Source: Ignavibacteriota bacterium
GTDB lineage: Bacteria > Bacteroidota > Ignavibacteria > UBA10030 > UBA6906
Assembly: GCA_963702445.1 (NCBI GenBank)
Contig: CAVPCZ010000005.1
Span: forward strand, 90 to 64,089
Length of the DNA: 64,000 nucleotides
Direction of reading: 5' to 3'
Both the position numbers and the translations under genes were made by a program. How positions within the stretch are numbered: the stretch's first letter is position 1; each line of letters begins with the position of its first letter. Under the pieces are notes generated by a model that made no database searches, had not been told where the DNA came from, and saw only the letters and a list, made by a program, of their open reading frames with translations. This document shows, in pieces, positions 28,066-55,871 of this stretch.

Positions 28066-30441
28066 ATGACCCCCGCCCGCACTGAAATCCGGCATGCTCC
28101 AGAACTTCTGGGCACAGCCGACCTGAGCCCGATCGAGGATTCCCCTGGATCCTATCGGGCACAATCAGAGGAGATTCTCCCGGAGGAGACTCTCCATGGA
28201 GAAGTAACGGTGGTATTGGAGTGCCGGGCCACGAGATTTCCCTTTGAGCGGTATTGCAGATATATGAGGCACAAGGGGGGGACACATCCGCACACGTTCC
28301 CTTCGATGGAGTTCGCAGCCAACCCGCCGGGGCTCCGCCTCGGCCCCTGGCCCGGCTGGCGTGGGATCCCGGAACTGCCTTTGCTCACTCTCTCCTGCGG
28401 GACAGAACGAACGCCTGTGCGGGCCACGTTCTGGGGAGACGAAATCGACCGGAGAATTCTGCGGGGGTTCTGCCGCATTACACCGGAATCCGGAAGGGAT
28501 TTGATTGTCACAAGTGCTGATCCGGACATTGTGCCGGTCCGCATCCTGCTCTACCGCACCACCTCGGTGCGGGCCCATCCGATCCCCGTGGCGCTCAAAC
28601 CGGATCTCTCCGGTGTGCATCCACGACTGTTGATCACTCCCTCTACCTTGCCCGCACTTCGCGAACGCGCGGCCGGTTCGCATGCCTCCGGCTGGCAGAT
28701 GATACTGGATTTGCTCGATTCCTGGGATCTTCCCTTTGCCAGGACTGCGGAATCCAAAACCGTCGCCGGCCCGCAACGTTTCACCGGCGAGGATAGAGTG
28801 GTGGTGTCCGCGTTCATCGCCTCCATCGATCCGCAGGAAGAGAATATCAGCAGAGCCCGTCAGGCCTTCCTGAGCTATCTGGAGGAAACAGAGCGTCCGG
28901 ACTTTGAACCGCTCACGATAGACACACAGGCGGGCGAGGTGTTGTTTGTGCTCTGCCTGGGATATGATTGGCTCCACCCGCTCCTGACCGCCGGAGAGCG
29001 GGAACGGGCGAGGGAGCGACTGGACCGGATAGCGGATATCTGCCGGGCATATCTCGGCAATGAACGGCGCGACTACGGACAGGCTCATTATCTCGGGTGC
29101 GGGCTCGGGCTGCTGGCGTTTTCTTTTCTCTTCTGGGAGGATCATCCGGGAGCTGCGGAGCTGGCCGCCCGCCTCCGTGGAGATCTGGACTGCGCCCTCT
29201 CTCTTCTCCCTGAAGACGGATCGTATCCGCACGGCATCAATCTCTGGATCTATGAGTTCGGTTTCCTCCTGCGCTGGCTGGAGCTCATCCGGGTGTGCAC
29301 GGGCGAAGATCTCTGGCGGACGACCTCCGGTGTGGAACGGGCATCCACATTCCGGGCTGCGACGCTTTCCCCCGACGGCCTGTACGGAGTCACCATCGGG
29401 GATCCGCAGTACCGGGTCGGCGGCGACAGCTGGTGCCACTTTCTGATCGCTGCACGGACGGGTTCCCCTCTTGCGCAATCGCTGGGGAAACTGCTGCAGT
29501 TCCTTCCTCATGAAGGTGTCGATGTGCGGAACGTGCCCGCCCGGAGGCGGGTCTACGAGTTCCTGTTCTTTGACCCTTCCATTGCGCCGGCGGACACACT
29601 GCCACAGGTGGAGTATTTTGCCGATGGCGGCCAGATCTGCCTCCGTTCTTCCGATGCCGTCTTCACATTCAGGTCGGGCCCGCCCCTGGGCATGCAACGA
29701 TACCGGAACGGCGAATACGGTGCATACGGCCACAGCGACCCGGCAAACGGGACATTCCTTCTGTACAGACGGAACACATTTCTCGTGAACGGTTCGGGTC
29801 CGGTATACCGCCGCGACTCCTCGCTGCACAATGTTGTGACAATAGACGGCCGGGGACAGATAGGAGACTCCACGGTCTGGTTGCCGGATTTTTTTCCTCC
29901 GGATGTGCTGGCTCCGCCGCCCGCGATTCGGGTCGACGGTACGACAATCGCACTTTCCGTGGAGCTGTCCGGTACGTTTCTGCCGCACCTGGGGGTGGAG
30001 CAATGCACCCGTGCGCTCTACGTTGATCTGCATCGCTGCATCATCGGCGTTGACACGGTCCGGTGCGCCCGTGCGCGTTCCATCGAACTCAATATGCACT
30101 CCTGGGGAAACTTTGTACCCGTAGCCGGAGAACGGGGAAGGGTCTATTCGCTTCCTGGCGGTGTCCGGTACATTCTGCTTGCCCCTTCCGGCGCGACAGA
30201 TGAGACGGGCCTCACGGAGTTTGTCCCGGCATACCCGAATGACGGGACACGGGATCATTACCTGAAGAGCGCCGTGCACGCGGCAGAGACGAGGTTCATC
30301 TGGTGCCATCTGTTGACGCCGGAATCCCTCCCGGCCGTTGAACGGGCCGGGCAATCTCCTTTCCGCATTTCGTTTGCGGGAGGTTATTCTCTTCTGTATG
30401 ACGGCCGCTGGCTGATCCGGGAGCCCTTTCATGCGCATTGA
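28066..30441 (+). CDS. Heparinase II/III-like polysaccharide lyase family protein
   Basis: Intact 791-aa ORF. Alginate-lyase-like (alpha/alpha) N-terminal half (HPRLLITPSTLPALRERA..) and the Hepar_II_III motif YGHSDPANGTFLLYRRNTFLVNGSGPVYRRDSSLHNVVTIDG. Confidence 0.75.
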   Translation: MTPARTEIRHAPELLGTADLSPIEDSPGSYRAQSEEILPEETLHGEVTVVLECRATRFPFERYCRYMRHKGGTHPHTFPSMEFAANPPGLRLGPWPGWRGIPELPLLTLSCGTERTPVRATFWGDEIDRRILRGFCRITPESGRDLIVTSADPDIVPVRILLYRTTSVRAHPIPVALKPDLSGVHPRLLITPSTLPALRERAAGSHASGWQMILDLLDSWDLPFARTAESKTVAGPQRFTGEDRVVVSAFIASIDPQEENISRARQAFLSYLEETERPDFEPLTIDTQAGEVLFVLCLGYDWLHPLLTAGERERARERLDRIADICRAYLGNERRDYGQAHYLGCGLGLLAFSFLFWEDHPGAAELAARLRGDLDCALSLLPEDGSYPHGINLWIYEFGFLLRWLELIRVCTGEDLWRTTSGVERASTFRAATLSPDGLYGVTIGDPQYRVGGDSWCHFLIAARTGSPLAQSLGKLLQFLPHEGVDVRNVPARRRVYEFLFFDPSIAPADTLPQVEYFADGGQICLRSSDAVFTFRSGPPLGMQRYRNGEYGAYGHSDPANGTFLLYRRNTFLVNGSGPVYRRDSSLHNVVTIDGRGQIGDSTVWLPDFFPPDVLAPPPAIRVDGTTIALSVELSGTFLPHLGVEQCTRALYVDLHRCIIGVDTVRCARARSIELNMHSWGNFVPVAGERGRVYSLPGGVRYILLAPSGATDETGLTEFVPAYPNDGTRDHYLKSAVHAAETRFIWCHLLTPESLPAVERAGQSPFRISFAGGYSLLYDGRWLIREPFHAH

Positions 30442-32866
30442 TCCTGAACAGCTGACCGACCGTGGTTGCTGGATCTCCGATGACCGGGTGTATGCATTCG
30501 TTTCGTCGGGAAAAAGCGGCATCGGGGAGATCGGGTACCACGGTGAGCAACCGGTCAGCAGGAACTCCCGCGTGTTTGCCGGAAAAGAGCCGGTTTGCAC
30601 GTTTGCCGTGAACAGAACCGGTCAGGAGCAATTCCCGATCCTGTTCCGGGAATTCGACTGGTGTCCGGGCGGGGTGCAGGTTCACGGAGAGTACGGTCTC
30701 GGGAAAGCGGTGCTGGATGTCGCCGTTTCAGGACGTATCCTGGTTGTGGCCTGCACCGTATCGAGCCAGGAATTCGCTTCTCTCCGGATCCGCTTCTCAA
30801 AAAGCGTCTGGTTCACGCAGGTTCAGGGAACGCGCACCTGGACTAAAGGAGCCGCGGAGAATGGTTCACTTACCCTCCGCTTCAGGGACAGGATCGTGCT
30901 GGATGAATGGATGAACAGGGAAGGCCCGTACGCCGGGGATTTCCTGATCCCTGAACCTGTCCGGCGTACCATATTCAGCCGCCGGTGCCGGTCGGGTCTT
31001 GCGAGACGCGATGATCTGTTGCCGGCGTACCGTGACACGGCTCTCCCCCTGTATGATGCCGGAGTCTCCATCCGGATTGGAGGCGAAGGATTTTTGCTGG
31101 AGGAGGAACCGGATGCATTCGTCTTCAACGCGCGTGTTCCGAAAGACTCCCTGACATTTCCTCTCTTCATGATCGCTTTCGACGAAGAAGTGCACCCCTT
31201 GCCGGAGGATGCCGAACTGAGGAGCATCCCCGCGAGGGTCCGGGCGAACCACGAGCAGTTGACAGCCGGAGCACCGGAGGTCCAGATTCCCGGATATTCC
31301 CAGGTTGAACGGTTCTTTGCGACGGTTCCCGGACTCGTGGAGTCCTGTATCATCCGTGATTATGGTGTCCCGCGCGCAACCCCCGGGGCATACTACTGGA
31401 TCTGGGCGTGGGATGCGATGGTGACCTGCCTGGCTGCCCTCCGGTGGGGAGACACCGGTGTGGCACGCCTCACGACCAGGTTTATCAACACGCATCGGGA
31501 TGAGGGCGGTTACATCCCCATGCGATGGACACGTGCACTTGTCCCTCTTGACACACAACCCCGGGGCGCGCTGGATGTCCTCCTCACATCACTCGCCCAT
31601 GCAACATTCGTGGAGACCGGCGACACTCATATACTTGGCGCGGTGTATCCGCACGTTGTCCGGCATTTTCAAGAGCTTTCTGCAACATGTGAGAGCCGCG
31701 GTCTGTTTGCCAACAGCGGGTTCTATCCGGACCTTCCTACCCGTTTTTCCCGGACGGAAACCAGTGCCGTCGCACTGGAGATTGCCGGATTCTACACGTT
31801 CTGTCGAACCTGCGAGAATATTGCCCGGCACATGGGAGACGAAACCACCGCTCAAGCCGCCGTGGAGATGGCGCTGCGGGTGAGAAAGACATTTTCTTCA
31901 CACGTTCTGGAATAAAGAGCAAGGGTTTCTGATCGATGCGATCGACCTGAAGACAGGGACACTGAATATCAGTTTCCCCCTTTTCACACTTCTGTTTCTT
32001 CATTCCCCCCTCGGGATGTCGCTCATCCGGCCGAAACTTGCAGAGTGTGCCGATTTCATCGCCCGGCATCTTCTCACCCCCGCGGGGCTCCGCGTGTTGC
32101 CTTCGTGGGACGACAACGCGGGTTCGGAAACCGTATCCGGCGCATGGTATCCGCACTGGGATGTCTATGCACTCAAGATCCTTCGAAGGGCAGGGAGAGA
32201 GAAAGACATTCTGCTCTGGCTTGCCTGCGTGGAGCGGGTTCTCAAGAAACTCGGATACTGTCCGGAATACCTTTCGCTGGAGGATTTTGACGGAAACAAT
32301 CCTGACTCCTGGCTCCAGCACGGATCGCCGTCAACCTGAACTGCGTCACCGGATGGTATACCGCCCTGATCGAGGGGCTATTTGGCATTGAGATTGACAG
32401 CGGCGGGCTCACGATTATTCCTCTTGGACTGCCGATCAGGGAGATGCGCCTTGCCGGCCTCCGGTGCCGCAGTGCACGCTATGATGTCCGCGTACAAAAC
32501 CAGGGCCCGTTCCTCCAGGAGCTCCGCCTCAACGGCACGATCCTCCGCGGATGCTGTAAACTTCCCTCCGCCATGATTCATCAAGGAGACAATGTTCTCG
32601 ATATCGTGTACGGACCGGAGCCGCCGGAGTGGTGTTTCAGAGAGATTGTCAACGCTGAAGTACTCGACGTGCACAACGGCGCACATCGTCTCGATGCCCG
32701 GATTCGCGCGCACGGCGTCGTGGACCTCTCTCTCTTTACCCCCGTCTGCTGCGATGTCCTGCTGGACAACGTCGCGGTCGCCACCGCAGGTGAACGGGGA
32801 ATCCACACGATGTCCAGACAATTGCTCATTCACGGAGACCATACGCTCTCCCTGGTGCGTCGCTGA
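30431..32866 (+). CDS. (alpha/alpha)6-barrel glycoside hydrolase-like protein (GDE_C / GH63-like); two frameshifts as assembled
   Basis: Pieces 30431..31915, 32016..32339 and 32444..32866 are contiguous in sense. Motifs YYWIWAWDAMV, GGYIPMRW, GAWYPHWDVYALKILRRAG, CPEYLSLEDF. The family call is tentative. Confidence 0.55.
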
Positions 32867-33094
32867 CCGGACGAACCCCTGTAGCATTCTTCCACGGTGC
32901 CCCCCATGACAGTCATGCATGCTCTTCCGGACGAGCCTTTCGGGCTTACAACGGATCAAAGAGGGCTGGACCGCCCATGCGGCATTTGCCAACGCCGGAA
33001 ACCGGAGGGGCGAAGTGATGACGATCATCTATTGTGCGGATGGTATAAAGCTCATTGAACCGGACAATTCCGTTGACCCGCAATGAAAACCCGC

Positions 33095-33280
33095 GGAGTA
33101 CGGGGGGAAAATGCCGCGCTACCCGAAATGGATCACTCATGGAGTACGTGTGGGGGGGGAAGTCCTTGGCGACTCGGAATCGATCACGCCAGGAGTGAAG
33201 GTGGGAAATGCCGCGCGACCCGGAATCGATTACGCACGGAGCGGGGGGGGAAAATCCCGGGCGGCCCGGATCATGGTCCG
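33095..33280. repeat. Four degenerate tandem units (46, 51, 46, 43 nt), each with a G/C homopolymer, overlapping the 3' end of the URO-D-family gene
   Basis: Units start at 33095, 33141, 33192 and 33238 (consensus GGAGTrCG..G(3-8)AAAATGCCGCGCnACCCGrAATCGATCAC). On the minus strand each unit can encode xFR(V/A)A(R/K)(D/H)FPPx. Confidence 0.75.
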
Positions 33281-34270
33281 GAGGTTGTCCGGAGGGGTGT
33301 GCGGAGGGATCGCGCAGCCGGCGTTGAGAATGAAGCGCGGGTTGCCGGCAAAGATGCTCAGCAATTCGAGAGTCTTCTCTTCCACCAGCGCAGCGGTTCC
33401 ACGCGCAAGCACACCGCTCGGGTCGATGTTCCCCACAAACGTCGTACGGCCCTCACAGGTACTGCATGCGAGCCGCGCATCTGTTCTGTAATCGATTTCA
33501 AGCCCGTCTGCTCCGGTGGTTATCAAATCCCCGAGGATCGGTCCCGTGTTGCCGCAGACATGCAAGAGATACGGCAAACCCAGTTCCTGAGAAGCCTTGA
33601 CCACCCTGCGCTCATACGGCAGGGCAAAACGCCGGAAGAGAGAGGGGGAGACGATGTCGGGTCCTGCGACACTGTCCCCGTTCGAAACCATGTCCGCTCC
33701 GGTTTCAGCCATCAGCCGTATGAACTGTACAGTAACCCCCGTGCAGTAGTCCAGCAACGCGTGTATCAGTTCCTCGTTGCCGGGATCGAGAAGATCCATC
33801 ATCCATCCGTCAATTCCCCGGATGAGACTTGCCAGCGTAAAGGGAGCCTGGTCGCAATTGCCCCGTACGAAGATTTCGTTTCCGCACCGCCGCTTCACCA
33901 AACGCACCGCTTCAAGCCATATCCGGACACCCGGGTAGGACAGAAGGTCAACCGGTTCCAGGTCGCGCACCTCATCCAGGGAATGCAGCAATGCCCCTTT
34001 TACCCGTGCGGGTTCTTCGCGGGGAAAGTCAACGGGCACACCCAGCGCACCGGCAAGGGTGGCGGTGTCGACATCGACAACAATACCGTCGTAGCCGTAT
34101 CGATCCAGAGACCGGAGAAAGGCGCCGGCAATTGTCTCCGGGTCGCTCCGGAACTCCTGCATGGTCACTCCGGCCTCGGCTGCGGCCATCATGAAACTGT
34201 GGAGCATGACGGGAACCGCGTCAACCGGTTCACCGCGCAGACCCGACCAGATTCGCTGGTGACCATTCAT
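33230..34270 (-). CDS. Uroporphyrinogen decarboxylase (URO-D) family protein, MtaA/MtbA-like methyltransferase subfamily candidate
   Basis: Intact 346 aa. URO-D-fold pattern along the whole length (..DGIVVDVDTATLAGALG.., FVRGNCDQAPFTLASLIRG, DMVSNGDSVAGPDIVSP, LLHVCGNT, GADGLEIDY, FILNAGCAIPPHTPPDN). Confidence 0.8.
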   Translation of the reverse strand: MNGHQRIWSGLRGEPVDAVPVMLHSFMMAAAEAGVTMQEFRSDPETIAGAFLRSLDRYGYDGIVVDVDTATLAGALGVPVDFPREEPARVKGALLHSLDEVRDLEPVDLLSYPGVRIWLEAVRLVKRRCGNEIFVRGNCDQAPFTLASLIRGIDGWMMDLLDPGNEELIHALLDYCTGVTVQFIRLMAETGADMVSNGDSVAGPDIVSPSLFRRFALPYERRVVKASQELGLPYLLHVCGNTGPILGDLITTGADGLEIDYRTDARLACSTCEGRTTFVGNIDPSGVLARGTAALVEEKTLELLSIFAGNPRFILNAGCAIPPHTPPDNLRTMIRAARDFPPPLRA

Positions 34271-34302
34271 GGATATGTTCCTGCTTCCCTGTTCACCGGG
34301 GG

Positions 34303-34449
34303 TTAGGGTTTCGATTTCCGCCGTCCTGATTTGCCGAGAAGGTCCCGCAGGTCACTGATTCCCCCGATGGAAACAACGAGCGCTATGCCGAAAAAGAGGA
34401 CCCCGGCGACCGCAAACGTGATAGTCCAGAACAGTGCACCTGATGTCAT
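34303..34449 (-). CDS. 48-aa single-TM protein translationally coupled to the symporter
   Basis: MTSGALFWTITFAVAGVLFFGIALVVSIGGISDLRDLLGKSGRRKSKP. Its ATG overlaps the symporter stop (ATGA at 34446-34449). Confidence 0.45.
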   Translation of the reverse strand: MTSGALFWTITFAVAGVLFFGIALVVSIGGISDLRDLLGKSGRRKSKP

Positions 34450-35933
34450 GTGTGCTCCACGGAAGGAAGGGAACGAGGAGGTGAGGATCGTTGCGTCAGG
34501 AGTGAACCCAGAACCATACCCAGGGCCGCCAGCGCGAAGCTGAGCATGCCGGCGATATTGACGTCGGTGATAAACCAGAGCCAGCCGGGCAGGACATCGC
34601 GTGATTTTTCGAGGAGCAGGAATCCGGCCGGCGCCGCCGCCCCCAACAGGAGCGCCGCATACGCGCCGGCGTTGTTGGCCCTGGGCCAGTAGAGGCCTGC
34701 CGCAACACATCCGAGTGCGCCCGACGTGTACATGGCACCCGTGAGATAGATGTATTGAAATGCCGTGTCCGGGATTTTGTACCAGAGTCCGAAAACCAGG
34801 AGAAATATGCCTATTGCTCCCGCGGCGACTCGCGTGACGGCTACGGTTGTCGCCTCAGGGAAATCCCGCGTCCGGGTGCAGCCGACAATGTCGCGTGCAA
34901 GGACGGAACTCCAGGCAAGAAGATAGGCGCTATACGTCGACATGGACGCAGCCAGCATTCCGGCAACGAGCAAGCCAAGGAACCCAGTCGGCACGATCTC
35001 CCCGAGCAGCCTGGGCATCGCAGCGGTGGTCGGCAACCCCGTGCCATAGAACGCCAGGGCTGCAACGCCCCAGAACATGGGCACCATGGCCCGGCCGGCG
35101 AACGTGAGTCCTGTCCAGAAGAACATACGTTTCGCGATTGCCGGGCTCTCTGACGAAAGCGCCTTGGATGTTCCGGGTTGCCACAATGCGCCGGCCGCAA
35201 CGCTGCTCACCAGGACCCAGACAACAAACGTCCAGCCAAAGCGCGGATTCACAAAGGGATCCACCCCTCCCGCACCGAGCGTCTGCGATACGGCCGTGCT
35301 CATACTCGCCAGATCGACGCGGAGCAGCACCGCCAGGGTCGCCACAAGCATCCCGATGGTCAGGATCACAAACTGCATATAGTCCGTGATGACAATCGAA
35401 AACATGCCGCCCATAATCGTGTATGCGATCACAATCAGGATCATGACGGTCATGATGACCGCAACGGCTCCCGGGCCGAACCCCATGACTTCGGAGAGGA
35501 ATATCCCGTCAAACACCAGGAACACTCCCATATTCAGAACACCCCCCAAAAAGAGAACGATGCCTCCGAGCAGGCGTACCCGGCGCGAATACCGCAACTC
35601 ATAGAACTCGGGGATGGTCATCACACGATGGCGACGGAGGCCTTCAATGATGAATCCTGTCTGGCCGACGGTCGAATACGCAACGAGGGCGAGAATCCCG
35701 ATGATGAACCCGGCGTATCCGGCAACATAACCGAGCTCGCCGTAGTAGACGAACGTGACAGTTCCCAGCTCCGTTGCCACAAATGTGGCGATGCCGAGAT
35801 ACACCTTCACGTTTCTGCCTGCCACCATGTAGCCTGCGAGGTCCTCGACATATCGTTTTGCCCATATCCCCAGCACAACGCTGCCGACAAGGTAGATGAT
35901 CGTCACAACCCAATCGATTGTTCCGAAGTTCAT
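34446..35933 (-). CDS. Sodium:solute symporter (SSS) family transporter
   Basis: Intact, about 495 aa from the ATG at 35933 (MNFGTIDWVVTIIYLVGSVVLGIWAKRYV..DLAGYMVAGRN..). About 13 hydrophobic segments, a typical SSS N-terminus. Confidence 0.85.
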   Translation of the reverse strand: MNFGTIDWVVTIIYLVGSVVLGIWAKRYVEDLAGYMVAGRNVKVYLGIATFVATELGTVTFVYYGELGYVAGYAGFIIGILALVAYSTVGQTGFIIEGLRRHRVMTIPEFYELRYSRRVRLLGGIVLFLGGVLNMGVFLVFDGIFLSEVMGFGPGAVAVIMTVMILIVIAYTIMGGMFSIVITDYMQFVILTIGMLVATLAVLLRVDLASMSTAVSQTLGAGGVDPFVNPRFGWTFVVWVLVSSVAAGALWQPGTSKALSSESPAIAKRMFFWTGLTFAGRAMVPMFWGVAALAFYGTGLPTTAAMPRLLGEIVPTGFLGLLVAGMLAASMSTYSAYLLAWSSVLARDIVGCTRTRDFPEATTVAVTRVAAGAIGIFLLVFGLWYKIPDTAFQYIYLTGAMYTSGALGCVAAGLYWPRANNAGAYAALLLGAAAPAGFLLLEKSRDVLPGWLWFITDVNIAGMLSFALAALGMVLGSLLTQRSSPPRSLPSVEHT

Positions 35934-36182
35934 GGGGCAAACACCTGCTTCCGGAATCGTGCATACAGAGACCACTTCATGAAGTTCATTCCCCGGGACG
36001 GCTGGGAGAGGACCTCCGCACCCGGAATCGTCTTGAGAGCATTGATGAAGGGCTGGGCATAGTTCAACAGTTCGACATCTTTCTTTTCGGACTTGAGCAA
36101 TCGATTCCTTTCCAGCTGACGAGGTCCGGTGTTGTCCGAAGACAGGGAGCGGTGATGGGCGGTGTGCCCACGTGAGGCCGGT

Positions 36183-36974
36183 TTATTTCATTCCCTTCAG
36201 CCATTCCTGAGCGAATGTGCGTGCGGCTTCAGTGGCTTCCTTTCCGGCACGGAACGCGAGCTTCCAGTTGCCGTCTTTATTTTCGAATTCATCGTTCGCA
36301 AAGACCATCATCTTGTTTTTCTTGATCAGCTTGGCGCCATAATCCACGTTCTTCGTTGCCTCCAGAAACGTCTGGAGGCGTTTTTTCACCAGAGGACGCG
36401 GATCGCCTTTGGGATAATCACGCTCATATTCCGCAATCTCTTTCTGGTACTCTTCCGCGGCCGTGCGGTTCGCTTCCTGCGTGTATTTATCCATTTCGGC
36501 ATCTTGCGATGTGTCGGGGTTTTCCATATCCTTCACAGCCTTCCGGAGGGAGGCCAGTATATCCTTGTACATGGCCTTCTGTTCCTCCGGCGCCTTCGCC
36601 GCCGCCTTTTCCTGTTCGGCAAGTGCCGCCTTCATCTCTGCCAGCTGTTTCTTCCGGGCTTCCGCCATCGTCGGCAGGAGTTCAGGCGCTCTCGGTTTCT
36701 GTTCCTCCCTGAATTCATCATAGATCTTCTTGAAGGCGGCGCTCTCCACGAACGTGCGGGTATACTCGCCGACCGCGCGGACCAGGGCGGCGCGTTTGTT
36801 CACCGGGATAAGGGTGCACGCTGATGGATACGAGAAGGACCCGTAGTGGAAATTCGCCTGGATGAAGTCCTCCACCTGCTTCTTTGTGCTCTTCATGTCG
36901 GCCAGGTAGTCCTCGATCCCGGCGCCCAGGGTAACGGCAAACAGCACCATGGAAACAACAAGCACACGTCTCAT
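36183..36974 (-). CDS. Secreted Lys/Glu-rich coiled-coil protein of unknown function
   Basis: Intact 263 aa with a ggagg RBS. Signal peptide MRRVLVVSMVLFAVTLGAG and a central helical charged region (KKQLAEMKAALAEQEKAAAKAPEEQK). No motif recognised. Confidence 0.65.
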   Translation of the reverse strand: MRRVLVVSMVLFAVTLGAGIEDYLADMKSTKKQVEDFIQANFHYGSFSYPSACTLIPVNKRAALVRAVGEYTRTFVESAAFKKIYDEFREEQKPRAPELLPTMAEARKKQLAEMKAALAEQEKAAAKAPEEQKAMYKDILASLRKAVKDMENPDTSQDAEMDKYTQEANRTAAEEYQKEIAEYERDYPKGDPRPLVKKRLQTFLEATKNVDYGAKLIKKNKMMVFANDEFENKDGNWKLAFRAGKEATEAARTFAQEWLKGMK

Positions 36975-37081
36975 AGTGAGACCTCCAATGTGTAAAGGGA
37001 ATCAGCATTCGTCAAGCAGTCGCCACGGCGTTCACGTTCCCCCGCCTGCACGGCAGTTCTGTGTGGATTCCGGCGGACGGA

Positions 37082-38455
37082 TTACAGACCGTAGCTGGAA
37101 GGAGAAAACCGGTGCGCATAGCTATCCGCCATCTCCCCAAGCAGGGTTTCTTCGTTTTCCGGCAGTGCGTCCAGGGCGGCGTTGATTTTCTCCAGCCACG
37201 ACAATTCTCTTCCGGGGAGTGTAAGGGCCCCGTCTGCCGATGCGCGGGTCATGATCCCGACCGCAGTCCGCGCTGCAGCGACCGTCTGCGCATACGGCTC
37301 GCGGTGCGCAACAATCGCGCGGGCAATCTCCAGCGTGGAATCCGGGGAAAGAATGAGCGCCTGCGGGCTTAACGCCGTGTCCGAGTCAACAAGCATCTTC
37401 CGGTAGCCCAGAACCATGTCCTGCCGTATCGCCTCGTTAAAGAGCCTGCAATCGTAAGCAAGCAGTTCCAGAAACGCCTCGGGGGCCGAGCCGGAGAGCA
37501 GACGGACGTTCTGGACCGATTCATTACTCCAGAGGTCGCACATCGCGGCGGCCACATTGCCTACCGGACTGAAATGAGCGCAACTCGCGGATTTTCCCTC
37601 CATGGCGATCGGGGTCCCGGTAATTGCCTTGAGGACCGGCCCTTCGTACGCACAGTCTTTGGATGGTCCGATTGCACCGCATTGATAGGCCACGAGGCTG
37701 CGCACAGCACTTGCAGCGCGGATCACCGTCGCCAGCACCTCGGGGAGCATCCCCTGCGAGGCAAGCTGCATGGCTGTATTCGCGAAGCCGCAGGCGGAGT
37801 CCGCGCCCGGAACAACGTGAAACCGGCCCGATACCTCCACGATCTTCCGCCAGAGCCACTCCATATCGCGCGGGGCGAGGACACCCAGGGCGAATATCGC
37901 CCCGCGGATATCCCCGTACATCAATGCCTCGTCATGCACCTCTTTCCCGCCCACGGATTCTATCGAAAGAATATGTGCTCCGGCATCTGCACATCGTTCG
38001 AACGATTCGCACAGGATCTCCCACTCTTCCCCTGTGCGGAGCAAGGGAGGACGCTGACGATCACGCACATCGGTCGGCGTGACCCGCAGCGCGCAGGGCA
38101 GTTGATACTCTTCGTGGGCCTGCCGGAGGGCGTCGTTCAGAATCGTGGTGATCTCCGCACCCCATGCGGGTTTTTCCGTCATCGGGGGAAGCAATTCGAA
38201 TTCCACCACAAGGCCGGGAAGCCGCAGCCTCTTTGACGCCCTCACGATCATCGCACCGAGTTCCTGATAGTGTGTCCGCACTTCCTGCCACGTCGCTTCT
38301 TCGATGGACATTACGGGTAGGGTGAAATTCAACTCCGGATAGACCTCTCCGGCCCCGATATGGATCCCGTATCCGCACGATACCGGGTGCGGCGCAACGC
38401 CAAACCGGAGATCCTCCGGCCGCGTGATGGCAAGGGTTTCGAATGTTCTGTTCAT
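37082..38455 (-). CDS. mtaB: MtaB-family methanol:corrinoid methyltransferase homologue
   Basis: Intact 457 aa, colinear by eye with Methanosarcina MtaB (recalled from memory). Motifs LSIESVGGKEVHDEAL, GADSACGFANTAM, RSLVAYQCGAIGPSKDCAYEGPVLKAITGTPIAMEGKSASCAHFSPVGN, CDLWSNESV, LAYDCRLFN, and a C-terminal ..FSPSSYGL. Confidence 0.85.
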   Translation of the reverse strand: MNRTFETLAITRPEDLRFGVAPHPVSCGYGIHIGAGEVYPELNFTLPVMSIEEATWQEVRTHYQELGAMIVRASKRLRLPGLVVEFELLPPMTEKPAWGAEITTILNDALRQAHEEYQLPCALRVTPTDVRDRQRPPLLRTGEEWEILCESFERCADAGAHILSIESVGGKEVHDEALMYGDIRGAIFALGVLAPRDMEWLWRKIVEVSGRFHVVPGADSACGFANTAMQLASQGMLPEVLATVIRAASAVRSLVAYQCGAIGPSKDCAYEGPVLKAITGTPIAMEGKSASCAHFSPVGNVAAAMCDLWSNESVQNVRLLSGSAPEAFLELLAYDCRLFNEAIRQDMVLGYRKMLVDSDTALSPQALILSPDSTLEIARAIVAHREPYAQTVAAARTAVGIMTRASADGALTLPGRELSWLEKINAALDALPENEETLLGEMADSYAHRFSPSSYGL

Positions 38456-38591: not shown

Positions 38592-38948
38592 CTACTCCCC
38601 TCTGTAGATGCACCCGCTGGTGCAGGTTTCCCGGACGACGACCTTGCTCAACTGCGGCAGTTCCGGCTTCAATCTGTGCCAAATCCATCGTGCGAGATTC
38701 TCGCTCGTAGGATTCTCCAGCCCCGGAATGTCATTGAGATAGTGGTGGTCCAGCTGCTCGTACAACGGCCGGAACGCCTTCTTCAGGTCGGCAAAATCAA
38801 TGACCCATCCCAGATCCGGGTCCACGGGACCCGAGACATGCACGACGACAACAAAGGAGTGGCCGTGGAGCCGGCGGCATTTGTGTCCCTCGGGCAGATT
38901 GGGCAGCAGGTGCGCCGCCTCGAACCGGATTTCTTTGAAGATTTCCAT
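38592..38948 (-). CDS. queD: 6-carboxy-5,6,7,8-tetrahydropterin synthase
   Basis: Intact 118 aa. [47 protein letters not shown] are classic QueD/PTPS motifs. Confidence 0.9.
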
Positions 38949-38957
38949 CGCTGCTTC

Positions 38958-39601
38958 CTATGGTAATCCGAGAATCTTGTGCATTTGCAGGCTCAGTTTC
39001 CACCGGGGGTGCTCCAGACAGTAGCGCATGGCCAGACGCGTGTTTTCCTACCTGGCCGGCCCGTCCATCGGTTGCAGGAAGAACTCGATCGAACTGCAGG
39101 TCCGCAAAACGTTCGGGCTCAGCGCCGGGCTGCGGGAAGATGAGCTTGAGCTCATGTCCGGCATTGACCGCCAGCGTTGTTCCCGCCTTCGGGCTCACGC
39201 AAATCCAATCAATGCCCGGAGGCGGAAGAATGGTGCCGTTTGTCTCGATTGCGACTTCGGCGCCCCACGCGTGAAACACATGAAGAAGCGCCTCGTCGAG
39301 CTGCAGAAGGGGCTCCCCCCCGGTGCAGACAACGAAGGGACGTGCTTCCGGATCACTGGTTGCCGGCCACTGTGATCTGACTGCTTGAGCGACGTCAGTG
39401 GCAGAGAGCGAATTGCCCGCCCCCGGGACCATCGGTGCCGGCAAAATCGGTATCACAGAACCGGCAGACCGCAGATGCCCTGTCCTGTTCACGGCCGCTC
39501 CAGAGATTGCACCCCGAAAACCGGCAGAAGACGGCCGCTCTGCCGCTGTTGGCTCCTTCGCCCTGAATGGTGTAGTAGATTTCTTTGATGGAATAGGGCA
39601 T
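38958..39601 (-). CDS. queE: 7-carboxy-7-deazaguanine synthase (radical SAM); two frameshifts as assembled
   Basis: MPYSIKEIYYTIQGEGANSGRAAVFCRFSGCNLWSG..CRFCDTDF (ORF 39395..39709), then VVCTGGEPLLQ..AIETNGT..WICVSPK (ORF 38797..39492), then ..MRYCLEHPRWKLSLQMHKILGLP* in a third frame. Lies 10 nt upstream of queD. Confidence 0.8.
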
Positions 39602-39632: not shown

Positions 39633-41008
39633 TTATCCCCTTGTACTTCCCCGTGCAAGTGACGAAAATACGCCTGCAACACAGAGCGCCGAGAAGACGG
39701 CAAAAGCAATATTCACGCTATGAAGGAACTGCGGGTACGATGACGGCTGAATCTGGACATGGCCGATGAAGATCGCGAACACCAGCATGGCAATGCCGAG
39801 ACTCACCGTCTGACCGGTCATGCGCATTGTGGCCAGCGTTCCCGCCGCCACTCCGTACACTGTCCGATCGACAGAACCCATGACCGCATTGGTATTGGGG
39901 GATGAGAACAGTGCGAAACCGAGACCGAGAAACCCCAGCGCTGTAACGATGAAGGGGAGCGGTGTCGTCGCGGTAAGGAACACAAAGAACAGGAGACCAC
40001 CCACAATCACCCCCATTCCCACCGAGGACACAATACGGGGATCGACCCGGTCGGACAGTTTCCCGGCAAAGGGTGAGCCGGCCGCCATCACCACCGGTTG
40101 AGCAAGCAGCACAAGGCCGGCCTGCTGCGGACTGAGTCCGCGGATGTACATGAGGTAGAGCCCGAGGAGAAAGGATACAGCAAAAGTTGCACTGTAGTTG
40201 ATAAACGCCGCAAGATTGGAGAACGCAAAGACCCGGTTACGCCGGAACAGATTGATGTCGAGCACAGGGACTCTCCGCATGCAGTTCCCACCGGATAAAC
40301 ACCAGGAGCAGAAGGAGTCCGCCGGCCGCAAGAACACGCCCCGGTGACGTCGGGAAGGAGGGAGAATCCGTACATCAGCGCTACAAGAGCGACGGCATAT
40401 ATGCATGATCCGGTCACATCAAATCGGGCTCCCCGCGACTCGGTCCATTCCCCTCTCATCTTCACTACGACAAGGATGATCATCAGTACGCCCAGGGGAA
40501 CATTCGCGAGGAAGATGCTCCGCCAGCCAAAGTGCTGGGTAAGAACGCCTCCGACAAATGGACCGAGCGAAAGACCGACATACACTGAAGCAGTGTTGAT
40601 GCCGAGCACCCTTCCCCGTTCTCCTGCGGGAAAGAGGGAAGTGAGAATGGCAATGCTCGTCCCCGCCATCATGGCGGCGCTGATGCCCTGCAGCACCCGC
40701 GCGCCGATGAGCAGACTCAGGGAAGGGGAGAGACCGCAGAGGAGAGACGAGCATGTATGCAGGGTAACGCCTCCGAGAAACACCCGCCTTCTGCCGGTGA
40801 TATCCGCAATCCGGCCAAAAGGGACGAGGAAGACGGAGGATGAAAGGAGATATGAGGTCGGCACCCATCCCAGCAAGACCGCACTCATGGAAAACTCCGT
40901 CCCTATTGCCGGGAGGGCAATATTGATGGAAGAACTCATGAACGGCGTCAGGAACGAGGCCAGGCTCGCGACAAAAAGCGCCGTTTGCTTGCTCACAGGT
41001 GCGGACAA
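39633..41008 (-). CDS. MFS transporter (14-TMS drug:H+ antiporter-like); one frameshift as assembled
   Basis: N-terminal part in ORF 40088..41008 (FMSSSINIALPAIG.., GRIADITGRRRVFLGG, LQGISAAMM). C-terminal part in ORF 39633..40406 (NLFRRNRVFAFSNLAAFINY..). Confidence 0.75.
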
Positions 41009-41383: not shown

Positions 41384-43292
41384 ATGCGCGCATCCGCAGT
41401 CCTGTCGTTCTCACCGAGATACCCCGTAGGGAAGTGTTCCGCACATGCGGCTGCTTGTCCTCCAAGCCGCACTGCATCCTCATCGCATCCCCAGCCACTC
41501 TCCACGCGCAACAGTCCGATACCTACCTTATCCCGACCAGCGATGGCATTTTCCTTGATGCCACGGTTGTCACTCCGGACACAGTGCCGCCCGCCGGAGG
41601 CTTTCCGGGGGTCGTGCTGGTCCACGGGTACGGGGGGACAAGGATGACCTGATCATGTCCGCGATCGCGTCCACCCTCGCCTCCCGCGGATATGCCTCCC
41701 TCGCATACAGCGTACGCGGACAGGGGAATTCGGGGGACTCTCCACAACGAGCGGCCCGCGCGAAATGGCGGACCTCCGGGAGGTGATCCTGTTTTTCAGG
41801 ACGAGGCCGAACATCAATCCCGAGAAGCTCGGTGTGGCCGGCGGATCACAGGGGGGCATCCACGCGTGGTACGCTGCAATGGCCAATATGCCGGGAGTGA
41901 AGGTGATAGCGACCCTCGTGGCGCCGCCATCCTTTGCCATGGACCTCGTGCCGAACAACTGCATCAAACAACAGCTGCACTTCGAACTGAACCTGGGTTC
42001 CGTCCGTTTCTCCCCGGACCGTGACCGGATGAAAGAATTCGTGATCGCCGACCGATGGGACAGCGTCCTCGCGTACAGCATACAGAGGGATTATCGTCCG
42101 TTGCTGGACAGCGTGCGTATCCCGGTGATCCAGAGCCTGGGGTGGGCAGATGTTCTGTTTCCCGTGAACGAGGGCATCCGCACGGTGCAGCGGTTGACGA
42201 AGCCGCGGAATTCCCATCTGGTCCTCTTTCGGAACAAACGGACACGGCGAAGAAATCAACCTTGCGGAGTACGTCTCGTTATTCGACAGGGTGTTCCTCT
42301 GGTTTGACCGCTGGCTGAAGGATGCGCCGCTGGATCAATCCGACAAGGCCCTGATCGTCTATGCAGACGACCGGCCCGACTGGCCACATCGTGAGACCAT
42401 CGGATGGCCCCCGAAACCGGCAGGCTCGCTCCGGCTTGCTCTGTCCAACGGGGCTCTCCGCACCATCCCGCCAAACACCACGGAAGAGTTGCCGTTTGTT
42501 CTTTCCTATGACACGACCTATACACCGAGGCAAGGCTGGACTGACGGCTACAAGGGAACCCGGTTCATCCAGGCATTCAGGAGCAGCGGTGCCCGTTTTC
42601 TCTCCTCTCCCTTCGCCGAAACGCTCGATGTCGCCGGCATACCTTTCGCACACCTTGCGCTTCGTTCCGATGCCCCCCAGTTTCAGGCACACATGCAGCT
42701 GTATGATGTGGCTCAAAGCGACACGGGATTTGTCTGGCGGTTGATGACCCGGGGAACCAACGGTGTCCGATCCTCTACACCCGGCACAACCATCGACCGG
42801 GAGTTCGAGTGCCAGGCGCTTGCGCACCGGATTGTTCCGGGCAACAGAATCGGCGTGGAGGTCACTTCCCTCGACATGTACGACAATACCAGGGCGCACA
42901 TCATTCCGTATTTCTCCTCCTCCGCCAGCGTGCTGATGATCTCTCCCTCGGATCCGTCCTATGTCGACATTCCGTTGATCGGCGGAGCAACCTTCGTCTC
43001 TGTGCATCAGACCGCGTCATCCTCACCTGCCGGGTTCTTCCTGCACCAGAACTATCCGAACCCCTTCAATCCGTCCACCGCCATCCGTTTTTCACTCGCC
43101 GGGCCGGGATCCGTCCTTCTTGAAGTGTTCAACGTGCTGGGGCAGAGAGTGGCAACACTCATCGACGGGCCTCTGGAGCGTGGAGAGCATCAGGTGCAGT
43201 TCCAGGGAAGGGGGCTCTCGAGCGGTATGTATGTCTGCCGTCTGAGCGTCGGCAACAGATCAAACCAACGGACAATGCTCTTGGTGCGATAG
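41384..43292 (+). CDS. Secreted alpha/beta hydrolase of the CocE/NonD / X-Pro dipeptidyl-peptidase (S15) type with a T9SS C-terminal domain; at least 3 frameshifts as assembled
   Basis: IPTSDGIFLDATVVTPD..GFPGVVLVHGYGG; nucleophile elbow GVAGGSQGG; PepX_C-like C-terminal half (ORF 42291..43292); CTD FFLHQNYPNPFNPSTAIRFSL..GMYVCRL. The exact start is uncertain. Confidence 0.65.
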
Positions 43293-43323: not shown

Positions 43324-44407
43324 TCAGCGCTGGATACGTGCCGATCCCCCCTTGGCGAATGCGCGCACCTGCTCGACGGTGGCCATGGTCGTATCGCCGG
43401 GGAACGTCGTGAGCAGCGCGCCGTGCGCCCAGCCCAGTTTCACCGCTTCTTCCGGCGATTCGCCTGTCAGCAGGCCGTAGAAGAATCCGCTCGCGAATCC
43501 ATCCCCGCCGCCGACGCGGTCCAGCACGTCAAGCTCGCAGGTGGGTGCGGTGTAGGTCTTGCCGTTGACCCACGCCACGGCCCCCCAGCTGTGGTGGTTG
43601 GTGGAGTGGACTTCGCGCAGAGTCGTTGCCACGACTTTCACCTGCGGGTGTTTCTTCGACCACCTTGTCGATCATCCCAAAGAACGTGCTCGGATCGAGC
43701 TTCGATTTGGCCGCCACTTCCGGACCGGGGATACCGAGGCCCTTCTGGAGGTCTTCCTCGTTGCCCACCAGGACATCGGCGTTTTCGACGATACGCGCGA
43801 CCACTTCGACCGCCTTCTGCTGCCCGCCCCAGATGTTCCACAGCTTCTCGCGGAAGTTCAGGTCGAAGCTCACGATCGCGCCGGCTTTCCTTGCCGCTTT
43901 CATCCCCTCGATGATCACCTCGCCCGTCGTCTCGGAGAGCGCGGCGAAGATTCCGCCGCTATGGAACCACCGCACGCCGCCCGCGAAGATGGCATCCCAG
44001 TCGAAGTCGCCGGGCTTCAGCTGCGCTGCTGCTTCGTTTGAACGGTTGTAGAACACCACCGGTGCGCGGACACCCTGTCCGCGGTCGCTGTACACGGTGG
44101 CCATGTTCGGCCCGTTGACGCCGTTGTGTTTGAACCGCTTGTAGAAGGGCTTCACGCCCATCGCCTTCACGCGTTCGGCGATCAGATCGCCAATCGGATA
44201 GTCCACCATCGCCGTCGCAATGCCCGTATTCATCCGGAAACAATCGGCAAGATTTGCGGCCACGTTAAACTCACCGCCGCTCACATGAATCTGGCATTCC
44301 GTTGCCTTCCGGAAGGGAATGATGCCCGGATCCAGCCGGTGCACCAGCGCACCGAGAGAAACCAAGTCGAACGCACCATCCGAACGGACATTTAACCCGT
44401 TACTCAT
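43324..44407 (-). CDS. kdgK: 2-dehydro-3-deoxygluconokinase (PfkB family); one frameshift near 43640
   Basis: MSNGLNVRSDGAFDLVSLGALVHRLDPG..GGEFNVAANLA.. and a C-terminal piece DVLDRVGGGDGFASGFFYGLL (ORF 43324..43641). Confidence 0.8.
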
Positions 44408-45440: not shown

Positions 45441-46565
45441 TTAGCGCATCACCACCATCTTCCGGGTTTGCGTGAACGTCCCCGCCTGGAGGCGGTACAC
45501 ATAGACCCCGCTCGCAAGATTCGCGGCATCGAATTCCACCGCTCTCTCTCCCGCGTCGAAAATCCCGTCCACAACCGTCGCCACTTCTCCTCCCAGCAGA
45601 TTAAACACCTTGATCGTCACCGTGGACCGCTCCGGCAGCCCGAACCGGATTGTGGTCGTGGGGTTGAAGGGGTTGGGATAGTTCTGGCTCAGGCGATATT
45701 CCACCGGAGTGCTTTCCACAATCTTCACGTCGGTGGGAATAGCGACATTCCACCAGGTCGGCGGAGTGACCTCGAGAGAATCGCCGCCGGCCTGGCCTGA
45801 TTCTTTTGCCGTTACTTCCACGCGGGCCAGGCGATCCGACACAAAAATGTATTTCACATCGACGCCCGTTGAGGTGGTATCAACCCTCTTGATCCGCAAC
45901 GCCTGTTCGATAATCCCGCCGGGCATCTTCATTGCACCGTAGGCATCGACGGTATATGTCGCGTTGTGGGTTTTCGTCGTAATGGGGAAGTAATACGTGG
46001 CCCCCAACCGTACAAAACTCGTATCAGTATAGGATGATTTCCATGTCGATTGATATTGCACGGGCAATGCGTACATGGTGTCCGGACGCGAATTAACCCA
46101 TTCAGCAAGTCCATTGCCGAATAAAGGGACGGTTGCAGCCGCCATGTCCCCCAATATGCCCATTGTGGCGGTTGCCCCTCCCGGACTCTTGGCATAGGTA
46201 TAATAGCGCCACGCGGTTGCCACCACGGAAATCACGCTACCGGGGGCTATCGGATAGCTTATCGACGCCTGTCCGTCGTGTGCGTGCGTCGCTCCAACCC
46301 GTGTGAATCCATATGGAGTACTGGACACGGCAACAGGCTTCAGCGGGATCCCGATGTTGGTTTTAAGATTGCTGAAGTCCCACAGGGTGTTACTGCCGGC
46401 AGAACCAATGTACACTTTGGTGGTCACGGAATCGGGAGTATGCGTGTATCCCCGGTTAAGCATGGACTCCGCTTGAACGATGCTGATTGTGGTCTGGGCG
46501 GAGGCAAGCTCCACCATTAGCAGTATCCCGCACAGAACCAAAACAGACCGCACGAAATGGTTCAT
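45441..46565 (-). CDS. Secreted protein of unknown function with a T9SS C-terminal sorting domain
   Basis: ATG at 46565 after aaggagggg. Signal peptide MNHFVRSVLVLCGILLMVELASAQ. CTD YRLSQNYPNPFNPTTTIRFGL..GVYVYRLQAG..KMVVMR*. Confidence 0.75.
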   Translation of the reverse strand: MNHFVRSVLVLCGILLMVELASAQTTISIVQAESMLNRGYTHTPDSVTTKVYIGSAGSNTLWDFSNLKTNIGIPLKPVAVSSTPYGFTRVGATHAHDGQASISYPIAPGSVISVVATAWRYYTYAKSPGGATATMGILGDMAAATVPLFGNGLAEWVNSRPDTMYALPVQYQSTWKSSYTDTSFVRLGATYYFPITTKTHNATYTVDAYGAMKMPGGIIEQALRIKRVDTTSTGVDVKYIFVSDRLARVEVTAKESGQAGGDSLEVTPPTWWNVAIPTDVKIVESTPVEYRLSQNYPNPFNPTTTIRFGLPERSTVTIKVFNLLGGEVATVVDGIFDAGERAVEFDAANLASGVYVYRLQAGTFTQTRKMVVMR

Positions 46566-46748
46566 ATCCCCTCCTTTGTTCTTTTTGTTTAACACTCTCC
46601 AGGGTACACGGAAATCCCTTCTCATGGGCCGCGGACCCGTCTTAGAATTTCACCTTGAGGACAAACACGCAAGTCCTCGGGGCCATTCTCCATGTACTGT
46701 TCGAAACCGGGCTCTCTGTGGATGTGCAGAAGCGCCGGAGCCGTCGCA

Positions 46749-53591: not shown

Positions 53592-54791
53592 ATGAAGACT
53601 CTGCTGCTGGAACACATCCACCCCCGTGCCGTCGGCGCACTGGTGCAGGCATCCCTGCACGTAACCGGGTCCGCCGGGAGTCTGCATGAAGACGAACTGA
53701 TTGCGGCCCTGCAGGGAGTTTCCGTCCTCGGCATCCGGTCCCGCACCCCCGTGACACGCCGCGTACTGGAGAACGCTCCCGACTTGATGGCGATCGGCGC
53801 CTACTGTATCGGGACGAACCATATTGACCTGGACACCGCCTCACTCCGCGGTGTGGCCGTGTTCAATGCGCCGTACAGCAACACGCGCAGCGTGGCGGAA
53901 CTGGTGATCGCGGAGATCATTTTTCTCGTCAGGCGTCTTCTGCCAAAGGTCGTCAGGGCACATGAAGGGGCGTGGGACAAATCAGCAGAGAACGCCCGGG
54001 AGGTACGCGGCAAGAAGCTGGGCATCATCGGGTTCGGCAACATAGGTTCACAGGTATCGACGCTCGCGGAAGCCATGGGCATGGACGTCCACTACTACGA
54101 CATCGTGGACAAGCTGACCATCGGCAACGCCACGCGGGTGCCGACCCTTCACGAGCTCCTTGGTCTGGCGGACATCCTGACGATTCACGTCGACGGCAAT
54201 CCCGCCAACGCCGATCTGATCGGCGAGGCGGAGTTCGCAGCGATGAAAGAGGGCGTGGTTCTTCTGAACCTCAGCCGCGGGCACATCGTCAATATCGATG
54301 CCCTTGCACGTCACCTCAGGTCCGGCAAAGTCGCCGGCGCCGCAGTGGATGTGTTTCCGCATGAGCCGAAAGATGCAGCGGAGCCGTTCCGTTCACCTCT
54401 CCAGGGCATTCCCAACGTCCTGCTCACGCCCCACATCGGCGGGAGTACCGAGGAGGCTCAGGAGAATATCGCGGATTTTGTCTCCAGCAAGCTCGTTGAC
54501 TACCTTGCCAGCGGCAACACGTTTACGAGTGTTAATTTTCCGAAAATCAGCGTGCCGCGGGCCGATGCAGCGCATTCGCGGCGCGTCCTGCACGTCCACC
54601 AGAATGTCCCCGGCGTGCTCTCCCAGATCAACGGCATTTTCGCCAAGAACAACGTGAACGTCCTCTCACAATACCTGCGGACGAACGAGCTGATTGGTTA
54701 TGCCGTTGCCGACGTGGACAAGTCGCATGAAGAGACGTTTTTCGAGGACCTGCGGCAGGTTGCGCACACCATCAGGGTACGGATCATGTAA
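53592..54791 (+). CDS. serA: D-3-phosphoglycerate dehydrogenase (with a C-terminal ACT domain)
   Basis: [11 protein letters not shown].., NAD-binding motif [12 protein letters not shown], catalytic [18 protein letters not shown], and an ACT-like tail [17 protein letters not shown]. Confidence 0.88.
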
Positions 54792-55776: not shown

Positions 55777-55871
55777 CGGTTCACCCTCCTCCATGTCCGG
55801 TAAATGTACAATATTCCCGCCAATCCTCCAACACTCAAGAAAAAGCCCCGCTCTCGAGCGGGGCTGTTCCC

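Follow-up and report, generated by a model that had tools for sequence, protein, structure and literature searches.

The DNA examined here, a stretch of 64,000 nt from a contig of an Ignavibacteriota bacterium (referred to throughout as the window), carries a block of five open reading frames (ORFs) that begins with a gene for a homologue of MtaB, a component of the methanol:coenzyme M methyltransferase MtaABC of Methanosarcina barkeri. A first-pass annotation had proposed that this MtaB homologue, a symporter and an MtaA-like protein form a single functional block from which a corrinoid protein is missing. All five of the proposed ORFs are present on the minus strand, and are listed here in the order in which they follow one another.

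37082-38455, minus strand: MtaB-family zinc methyltransferase (MT1), 457 aa, identified by Pfam, NCBIfam, a PDB match, a structure model and conservation statistics
36183-36974, minus strand: 263-aa ORF with a signal-peptide-like N-terminus, Lys/Glu-rich, of no family
34446-35975, minus strand: sodium:solute symporter (SSS; PF00474, TIGR00813), with a likely true start at ATG 35933 that gives 495 aa
34303-34449, minus strand: 48-aa ORF with a single transmembrane segment, translationally coupled to the SSS gene by an ATGA overlap with its stop codon
33230-34270, minus strand: MtaA/CmuA-like zinc methyltransferase of the URO-D family (PF01208), candidate MT2, 346 aa, with H237-x-C239...C319

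The 457-aa protein matched the Pfam family MtaB (PF12176) with E=1.4e-153 (512.5 bits against a cutoff of 25), its residues 3-456 covering profile positions 2-460 of 460, and matched M. barkeri MtaB (PDB 2i2x_A, the only MtaB structure solved) with E=2.2e-87. An AlphaFold2 (AF2) model of the protein (pLDDT 85, pTM 0.90) superposed on 2i2x_A with TM scores of 0.93/0.92 and a root-mean-square deviation of 2.4 Å; the next structural matches in the PDB were generic TIM barrels with TM scores of ~0.3. Residues E166, C222 and C268 aligned with Glu164, Cys220 and Cys269 of M. barkeri MtaB, numbers that we take to be those of its zinc ligands and that fit the alignment, and the corresponding columns were near-invariant among 83 aligned homologues (Glu in 83/83, Cys in 82/83 and Cys in 83/83). 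The ligand type of the MtaB zinc site is one Glu and two Cys (PMC6257451). Although the two proteins are only ~35% identical, they share the same Pfam family over their full length, the same TIM-barrel fold and identical zinc ligands, and the surrounding motifs GxDxxCxxANTAM and GPxKDCxYE are highly similar. The window protein differs from that of M. barkeri in having no adjacent mtaC and in carrying Gln in place of Glu259, and it comes from a polysaccharide-degrading bacterium with O2-dependent enzymes instead of a methanogen. It shares 93% identity with the homologue at reference locus L005, and its ORF is intact while five nearby genes are frameshifted. Taken together these data show that the window protein is a member of the MtaB family in sequence and fold, that it retains the zinc ligands and that it is under strong purifying selection, in agreement with the earlier proposal of a full-length MtaB homologue with conserved Glu/Cys/Cys ligands.

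Homologues of this protein were found to be common. More than 6,488 were recovered at E<=1e-10, the best of them from metagenome-assembled genomes (MAGs) of Bacteroidota, Ignavibacteria and KSB1, and relatives are encoded in 488 stretches of species-representative genomes, the 80 best of which (60-93% identical) were surveyed as reference loci. These 80 come from Bacteroidota, Ignavibacteriota, Kryptoniota, KSB1, Methylomirabilota, many Acidobacteriaceae/Terracidiphilus, Solibacter and one Roseiarcus. The family as a whole is compact, with 654 representatives at 50% clustering and about 25 of these full length. Bacterial mtaB/mtaC genes have been recorded before (PMC6890927), and mtaB is expressed by Acidobacteriota in peat, where it was read as a sign of anaerobic methanol methylotrophy (PMC10805028). 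With 488 stretches across several phyla and expression already reported, the earlier suggestion that an MtaB homologue is unusual in such a bacterium had to be abandoned.

The neighbourhoods of these genes were compared by clustering all ORFs of the 80 loci and annotating the recurrent neighbours. A canonical mtaC lies within ~2 kb upstream of the MtaB gene in 54 of the 80 loci, on the same strand in 52 of those 54 and usually directly adjacent, and the encoded proteins have B12-binding_2 and B12-binding domains with the motif GDxHDIGKN. The activase RACo is present in 26 loci and URO-D genes in 56. In the Acidobacteria the gene order is MtaC and a divergent URO-D, MtaB, DUF1638, RACo (Fer2, Raco_middle and RACo_C_ter) and a further URO-D. 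In the order termed type A, from Ignavibacteriota/Bacteroidota, a 747-aa protein, a PfkB kinase and URO-D precede MtaC and MtaB, which are followed by a 777-aa protein, glycerate kinase, EamA, GFO/IDH/MocA, an NTP-transferase, a GalK-like kinase and an SSS transporter. Bacterial clusters with mtaA(URO-D), mtaC and mtaB (L014-L084, from Ignavibacteriota, Bacteroidota, KSB1 and Acidobacteriota) are automatically annotated, encode MtaB proteins 60-69% identical to that of the window with the same conserved columns, and often include URO-D paralogues, sugar kinases, aldolases and SSS or other transporters. Since mtaC lies upstream in 54/80 loci and is accompanied in the Acidobacteria by RACo, DUF1638 and URO-D, the bacterial MtaB branch is as a rule a corrinoid-dependent methyltransferase system embedded in sugar catabolism. 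The guessed connection with sugar metabolism is thus borne out by the settings of the relatives. The family also proved to be common and already annotated by automated means, but mostly with mtaC, members without it being a minority.

The window's clade differs from these clusters in that the upstream MtaC, RACo and DUF1638 are missing and the constraint on Glu259 is relaxed. No B12-binding domain was detected in six frames of the 64 kb, either by the motif DxHxxG or with a hidden Markov model (HMM) of the relatives' MtaC, and HMMs of RACo and DUF1638 likewise gave no match within the window, which extends 25 kb to one side of mtaB and 37 kb to the other; no cobalamin riboswitch or other Rfam element was found in it. 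Of the parts of a three-component system the window thus holds MT1 and a candidate MT2, and the absence of a corrinoid protein and its activator that had been noted by eye was upheld by motif and profile searches. In the tree the window protein falls in a clade of 12 "orphan" MtaBs (86% bootstrap; 100% for the window protein with L005), none of whose loci has an mtaC in the available DNA, eight of them with ~10 kb on each side. Neighbours of the orphan genes vary by genome and include a catalase and a LysR regulator (L001/L007), an AMP-binding enzyme and NorB (L002) and peptidases (L004). A second group, termed type B, has a core clade with 99% bootstrap and the gene order GH38 alpha-mannosidase, PMI-like cupin, FAA hydrolase, MR_MLE, DHO-dehydrogenase-like protein, cyclase, M20 peptidase and MtaB, followed by ROK kinase, URO-D, the 747-aa protein, LacD-type aldolase, PfkB, URO-D, the 777-aa protein and glycerate kinase. 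Seven such operons, tightly packed and encoding MtaB with 1-3 URO-D paralogues, have no B12-binding ORF within +/-10 kb. A neighbour-joining tree had suggested that all MtaC-less MtaBs form a single clade; this was rejected, as their union received 2% bootstrap against 86% and 99% for the two sub-clades. Because mtaC is absent clade-wide, its local absence is not an effect of the window edge, and the missing corrinoid protein is real both at the locus and at the level of the clade, mtaC and RACo being absent from the window and from the loci of its clade.

On one account there is nothing unusual in these absences: the methanol system would be a canonical one of three components, with mtaC and the activase gene outside the window and acting in trans, and local gene order would be meaningless. 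The search covered 64 kb of the host genome, the constraints on MtaB are almost indistinguishable from those on MtaC-linked proteins, and the block is patchy, with a GH3 gene, a GATase1-like gene, mtaB and the 263-aa ORF varying among close relatives. However, mtaC is found within ~2 kb upstream of mtaB in 54/54 of the loci that have it, no match was obtained in the 25-kb and 37-kb flanks or at the eight orphan-clade loci with long flanks, and a relaxed Glu259 would be unexpected if the same partner were used. An unchanged system completed in trans is therefore considered unlikely.

Sequence constraint was compared between 53 MtaC-linked proteins and 20 MtaC-less proteins from the orphan and type B groups. 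Of 224 columns at least 90% conserved in the MtaC-linked set, 201 keep their residue at >=90% in the MtaC-less set, and no fixed residue discriminating between the sets was found, which makes both decay and a sweeping change of function less likely. Decay would take the form of an mtaB that is a functionless remnant of a lost methanol system, as might be suspected from the lost mtaC, the many frameshifted genes around it and its variable presence among close relatives. We regard this as highly improbable, since the ORF is intact and full length, proteins of the orphan clade are 74-93% identical with invariant zinc ligands in addition to the retained columns, and a relic would not remain so conserved across many genera.

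The initial view that the MtaC-less proteins show no divergence at all nevertheless had to be qualified when a column-by-column comparison exposed Glu259 of M. barkeri MtaB. This site corresponds to Gln258 of the window protein, ten residues before the zinc ligand C268; in the AF2 model helix 239-258 ends C-terminally with residue 258, and the short strand bearing C268 comes after it. It is Glu in M. barkeri, in 52/53 MtaC-linked proteins and in 17/21 full-length family representatives, whereas loci that lack mtaC, counted where the upstream DNA suffices for a judgement, have Glu in 10 cases and another residue in 16 (Fisher p=3.6e-9, uncorrected for phylogeny). Where Glu is replaced, orphan-clade proteins carry Q or R, type B proteins S or A, and a pair from NC10 carries A; the site flips even between close relatives, being Q in the window and E in the 93% identical L005, a pattern of relaxed constraint. 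At least five separate lineages in which mtaC is unlinked have lost the Glu, among them those of P0126 and P0128, both with intact zinc ligands and neither with an MtaC gene in the canonical slot of their short contigs. The Glu259 site is L in P0126 (gene order AP_endonuc_2, 2-hydroxyacid dehydrogenase, DoxX-like, MtaB, YHS) and Q in P0128 (URO-D, PfkB, an 89-aa ORF, MtaB). That Glu259 is relaxed exactly where mtaC is unlinked hints that the interaction with MtaC, or part of the catalytic environment, has changed. No description of the MtaC-less condition was found in a literature search; what is new here is the existence of well-supported MtaC-less MtaB clades together with an associated relaxation of constraint on a glutamate conserved in the family.

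These findings raise the possibility that the MtaC-less clades have changed their mechanism, using free cobamide as a co-substrate or a corrinoid-free zinc chemistry on a sugar-derived methyl ether or ester, by direct transfer or by hydrolysis. Consistent with such a change, the MtaC-less state is clade-wide in both groups, the type B operons keep every other component, and Glu259 is both associated with mtaC and repeatedly lost where mtaC is unlinked. A mechanism free of a corrinoid protein is also kept open by the in vitro reaction attributed to Sauer & Thauer (1999), in which free cob(I)alamin reportedly replaces MtaC, and the Glu259 pattern provides some positive support for it. On the other hand, the zinc site, its surrounding loops and the other conserved columns are the same as in MtaC-linked proteins, the Glu259 site varies among E, Q, R, S and A with none fixed and so resembles the loss of one interaction rather than a new catalytic design, and the absence of mtaC applies to the loci searched (the window or +/-10 kb). 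A changed mechanism is accordingly rated as a minority explanation. With the same tentative standing, several bacterial MtaB lineages could be natural systems of two components, or ones free of a corrinoid protein, at work in O2-tolerant polysaccharide degraders: zinc would activate methanol or a methylated donor derived from sugar, the methyl group would pass to free cobamide or directly to an MtaA-like partner, and Glu259 would mark the MtaC-dependent state.

The candidate partner within the window is the URO-D protein, encoded on the same strand 2.8 kb downstream of mtaB. Its Pfam match (PF01208, E=1.5e-66) means that both families proposed for the block, PF12176 and PF01208, were recovered by their profiles. 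Its best PDB match is MtaA of Methanosarcina mazei (4ay7, E=4e-32), against E=1e-17 or worse for HemE structures, and the 100.4 bits scored with the hemE model TIGR01464 (cutoff 302.95) are not at the level of HemE. H237, C239 and C319 align with the segments LHiCGN and GCgiaP of 4AY7, the closest solved relative, whose His-x-Cys...Cys residues we take to be the zinc ligands of MtaA. The MtaA-like assignment made from the letters is thereby confirmed. Compared with the URO-D paralogues found at MtaB loci, it sits on a long branch beside an acidobacterial type encoded 8-79 nt downstream of MtaB, and the data support, at the family level, that MtaB and URO-D proteins are functionally linked. The family of the window URO-D itself (~340-342 aa, 60-71% identity, Bacteroidota/Ignavibacteria) also occurs after a sugar ABC transporter (L087) and among ROK and GPI genes (L086), in neither case with a corrinoid protein. 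In L087 (10001-12186) and L088, from an Ignavibacteriales genome, two tandem URO-D genes directly follow a four-gene sugar-type ABC transporter with a 4-nt overlap, and no MtaB, MtaC or activase is encoded within 10 kb. MtaA-like clusters without MtaB are known from anaerobic Firmicutes, and the Mlp proteins of these mlp clusters (Kountz & Balskus, PMC10418091) resemble the window URO-D in being MtaA-like proteins of a non-methanogen. In the window the URO-D gene comes after a Na+/solute symporter and in relatives after a sugar ABC transporter, and a corrinoid protein is encoded near neither.

The five genes do not behave as one conserved operon. The order MtaB, 262-aa ORF, SSS, 48-aa ORF, URO-D was found only in P0006/L003/L005 (93% identity) and P0001 (96%), and in these close relatives the block is interrupted by a GH3 gene in one and by a GATase1-like gene in another. 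In L085 the order is QueE-like, PTPS, SSS, 48-aa ORF, URO-D and an 811-aa glycoside hydrolase (GH)-like protein, with 84%, 92% and 85% identity to the window for URO-D, SSS and the 48-aa ORF, respectively, and neither mtaB nor the 262-aa ORF is present. Conversely, mtaB stands as an orphan among unrelated neighbours in L001/L007, L002, L004 and L009-L012. The idea of one functional block or operon was therefore discarded. The synteny of L085 indicates that SSS, the 48-aa ORF and URO-D form a stable unit beside which mtaB and the 263-aa ORF are a variable insertion, and in the five-gene block two modules lie side by side. Directly upstream of mtaB lie genes for queuosine precursor synthesis, QueD of the PTPS family (38592-38948, minus strand) and a QueE-like radical-SAM protein (38961-39601, minus strand); since these are kept in all close relatives with or without mtaB, they mark the insertion site.

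The explanation we favour, to which we would give about an even chance, is that the window protein, a member of the bacterial MtaB branch, works as a zinc-dependent methyl-donor:cob(I)amide methyltransferase whose cis corrinoid gene has been lost and whose carrier is encoded elsewhere or is free cobamide. In such an enzyme Zn(II) held by Glu166, Cys222 and Cys268 would activate the C-O bond of methanol, or of a very similar small methyl-O donor, and cob(I)amide would take the methyl group. The acceptor in most relatives would be the dedicated MtaC encoded directly upstream; in the window's clade, where this gene is unlinked, the carrier may be a corrinoid protein from another part of the genome or a free or loosely bound cobamide. 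The MtaA-like URO-D protein could plausibly, though not obligatorily, perform a second step from methyl-cobamide to a thiol or folate acceptor, and presumably, unlike in methanogens, the downstream acceptor in this host cannot be coenzyme M. The SSS and the 48-aa ORF would belong with URO-D as a separate transporter-linked module. In favour of this reading, it is normal in methanogens for mtaA to be unlinked from mtaCB. Methanol is the probable donor, given that the zinc site and every conserved loop agree with the methanol enzyme; the methyl groups could still derive ultimately from methylated sugars or products of their breakdown, as the sugar-catabolic settings of the relatives would allow. 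The likely role would be the capture of methyl groups from methanol or methylated sugars released in the breakdown of plant polysaccharides. The reaction of Sauer & Thauer (1999) is a precedent for MT1 and MT2 acting without a corrinoid protein, with the same gene content as in the window, but it is an in vitro substitution with a methanogen enzyme and not a natural system.

Several observations weigh against this cobamide-dependent reading. The window MtaB scored 408.5 bits with the NCBIfam equivalog MtaB_Meth (NF040651), short of the cutoff of 720, and the best NCBIfam model for the URO-D protein, MtaA/CmuA (TIGR01463), gave 173 bits, below its cutoff of 235.4. Corrinoid protein, activase and cobalamin riboswitch are all missing from the window, mtaC is missing from the orphan loci and a B12-binding ORF from the type B operons, and the relaxed Glu259 hints at a change in the interaction with MtaC or in part of the catalytic environment. 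The host has O2-dependent enzymes and no activase in view, and cob(I) chemistry is sensitive to O2. The mtaB and URO-D genes are separable even in close relatives of the window, and for this reason cooperation between their products, like the substrate and the corrinoid dependence of the window's clade, is something that we infer.

As the branch is widespread, most of its members have canonical partners and the block consists of two modules, the finding is less exceptional than was first proposed. It has consequences for how these genes are counted. In soils and peat, methanol derived from pectin and other methylated polymers of plants makes up a major C1 flux, and omics surveys currently take each bacterial "mtaB" as a sign of methanol methylotrophy that is anaerobic and depends on a corrinoid protein, whereas about one third of the reference loci examined have no corrinoid-protein gene and form clades of their own. 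If these proteins do work differently or with a carrier in trans, such counts would need a second marker, either mtaC adjacency or the state of Glu259. A natural MtaC-free MtaB would, if confirmed, also be of interest for cobamide-methyltransferase biocatalysis with methanol as methyl donor. Finally, the recurrence of MtaB and URO-D in clusters for hexose and glycoside catabolism suggests an unexplored route for methylated sugars.

Among the remaining genes of the block, the symporter matched PF00474 over the full profile (E=6.1e-24, 85.1 bits against 22.8; residues 49-445 on positions 1-406 of 406), as had been proposed, and reached no substrate-specific equivalog cutoff in the NCBIfam scan. 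Its orthologues in L003/L005 and L085 are 90-92% identical, and since they are called at 495 aa in two relatives, ATG 35933 is the likely start. The 48-aa gene is called after SSS in three relatives (85-87% identity), and the junction sequence shows the ATGA overlap that had been described. The 263-aa ORF matched no Pfam or NCBIfam family, and its counterparts (262 aa, 80% identical) were found only in the relatives with 93-96% identity and are absent from L085. It was considered as a degenerate MtaC and rejected, hhalign against an MtaC profile giving a probability of 0.07% for this lineage-restricted ORF of no family; it is probably lineage-specific and outside the methyltransferase system. 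No sigma-70-like site was found on the minus strand and no TAnnTTTG in the gaps. Two further features lie at the downstream end, the hairpin being the only one of its kind found.

33095-33268, no strand assigned: direct repeat of ~48 nt in about four copies, spanning the stop codon of URO-D and the spacer beyond it
33090-33104, minus strand: terminator-like hairpin, after URO-D

The core of the repeat, GCGCGGCATTTTCCCCCC on the minus strand, has 3 matches against 0.1 expected, and its last copy encodes the C-terminus of URO-D.

The wider window agrees with the earlier description of a non-methanogen, polysaccharide-degrading background with O2-dependent enzymes. It encodes GH26, GH4, a heparinase-like protein and a TonB-dependent receptor, together with the following features, among them cargo of the type IX secretion system (T9SS).

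54784-55887, minus strand: acyl-ACP desaturase
45441-46625 and 42291-43292: T9SS cargo with Por_Secre_tail
57476-58480, minus strand: second, divergent URO-D-family ORF of 334 aa (Pfam E=1.2e-14, over the C-terminal two thirds of the profile)
30431-32866, plus strand: frameshifted 811-aa GH-like gene
38961-39601, minus strand: frameshifted QueE-like gene
39636-41008, minus strand: frameshifted MFS transporter gene
41384-43289, plus strand: frameshifted gene for an S15 peptidase with a T9SS tail
43327-44407, minus strand: frameshifted PfkB kinase gene

The 334-aa URO-D ORF adjoins genes for a DEAD-box helicase and the acyl-ACP desaturase and is not HemE-like by score. The five frameshifted genes are each split over 2-3 frames relative to intact orthologues in L003 (93%), and the genes for MtaB, the 263-aa ORF, SSS and URO-D are intact amid them; the frameshifts could reflect long-read indel errors or real gene decay. 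A PhyH dioxygenase had also been listed among the O2-dependent enzymes. The copy beside URO-D proved to be just a 36-aa remnant (32964-33071, plus strand), although a more distant PhyH-like match exists at 12046-12387 (minus strand). A PhyH gene separates URO-D from the 811-aa gene in L003 and in the P0001 contig, L085 has none beside URO-D, and the spot next to URO-D is thus prone to gene gain and loss.

Several minor observations were made on the relatives. The 747-aa and 777-aa proteins, which are secreted and of no Pfam family, adjoin MtaB/URO-D genes in ~20 Ignavibacteriota/Bacteroidota genomes (L014-L044; examples at L031:5089-7332 and L020:11401-13734) and co-occur with PfkB, LacD-type aldolase, glycerate kinase, GH38 mannosidase, PMI-like cupin, ROK and GalK-like kinases; the cluster may serve the catabolism of a methylated hexose or glycosyl-glycerate polymer. 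P0141, of 1238 aa, has a C-terminal MtaB-like domain of 38% identity in which both zinc cysteines and Glu259 are replaced (L, S, A), and this fused domain is probably non-catalytic or repurposed. In an acidobacterial MAG (L048:9983-11400) the MtaB homologue is frameshifted into ORFs of 359 and 103 aa, with mtaC present upstream.

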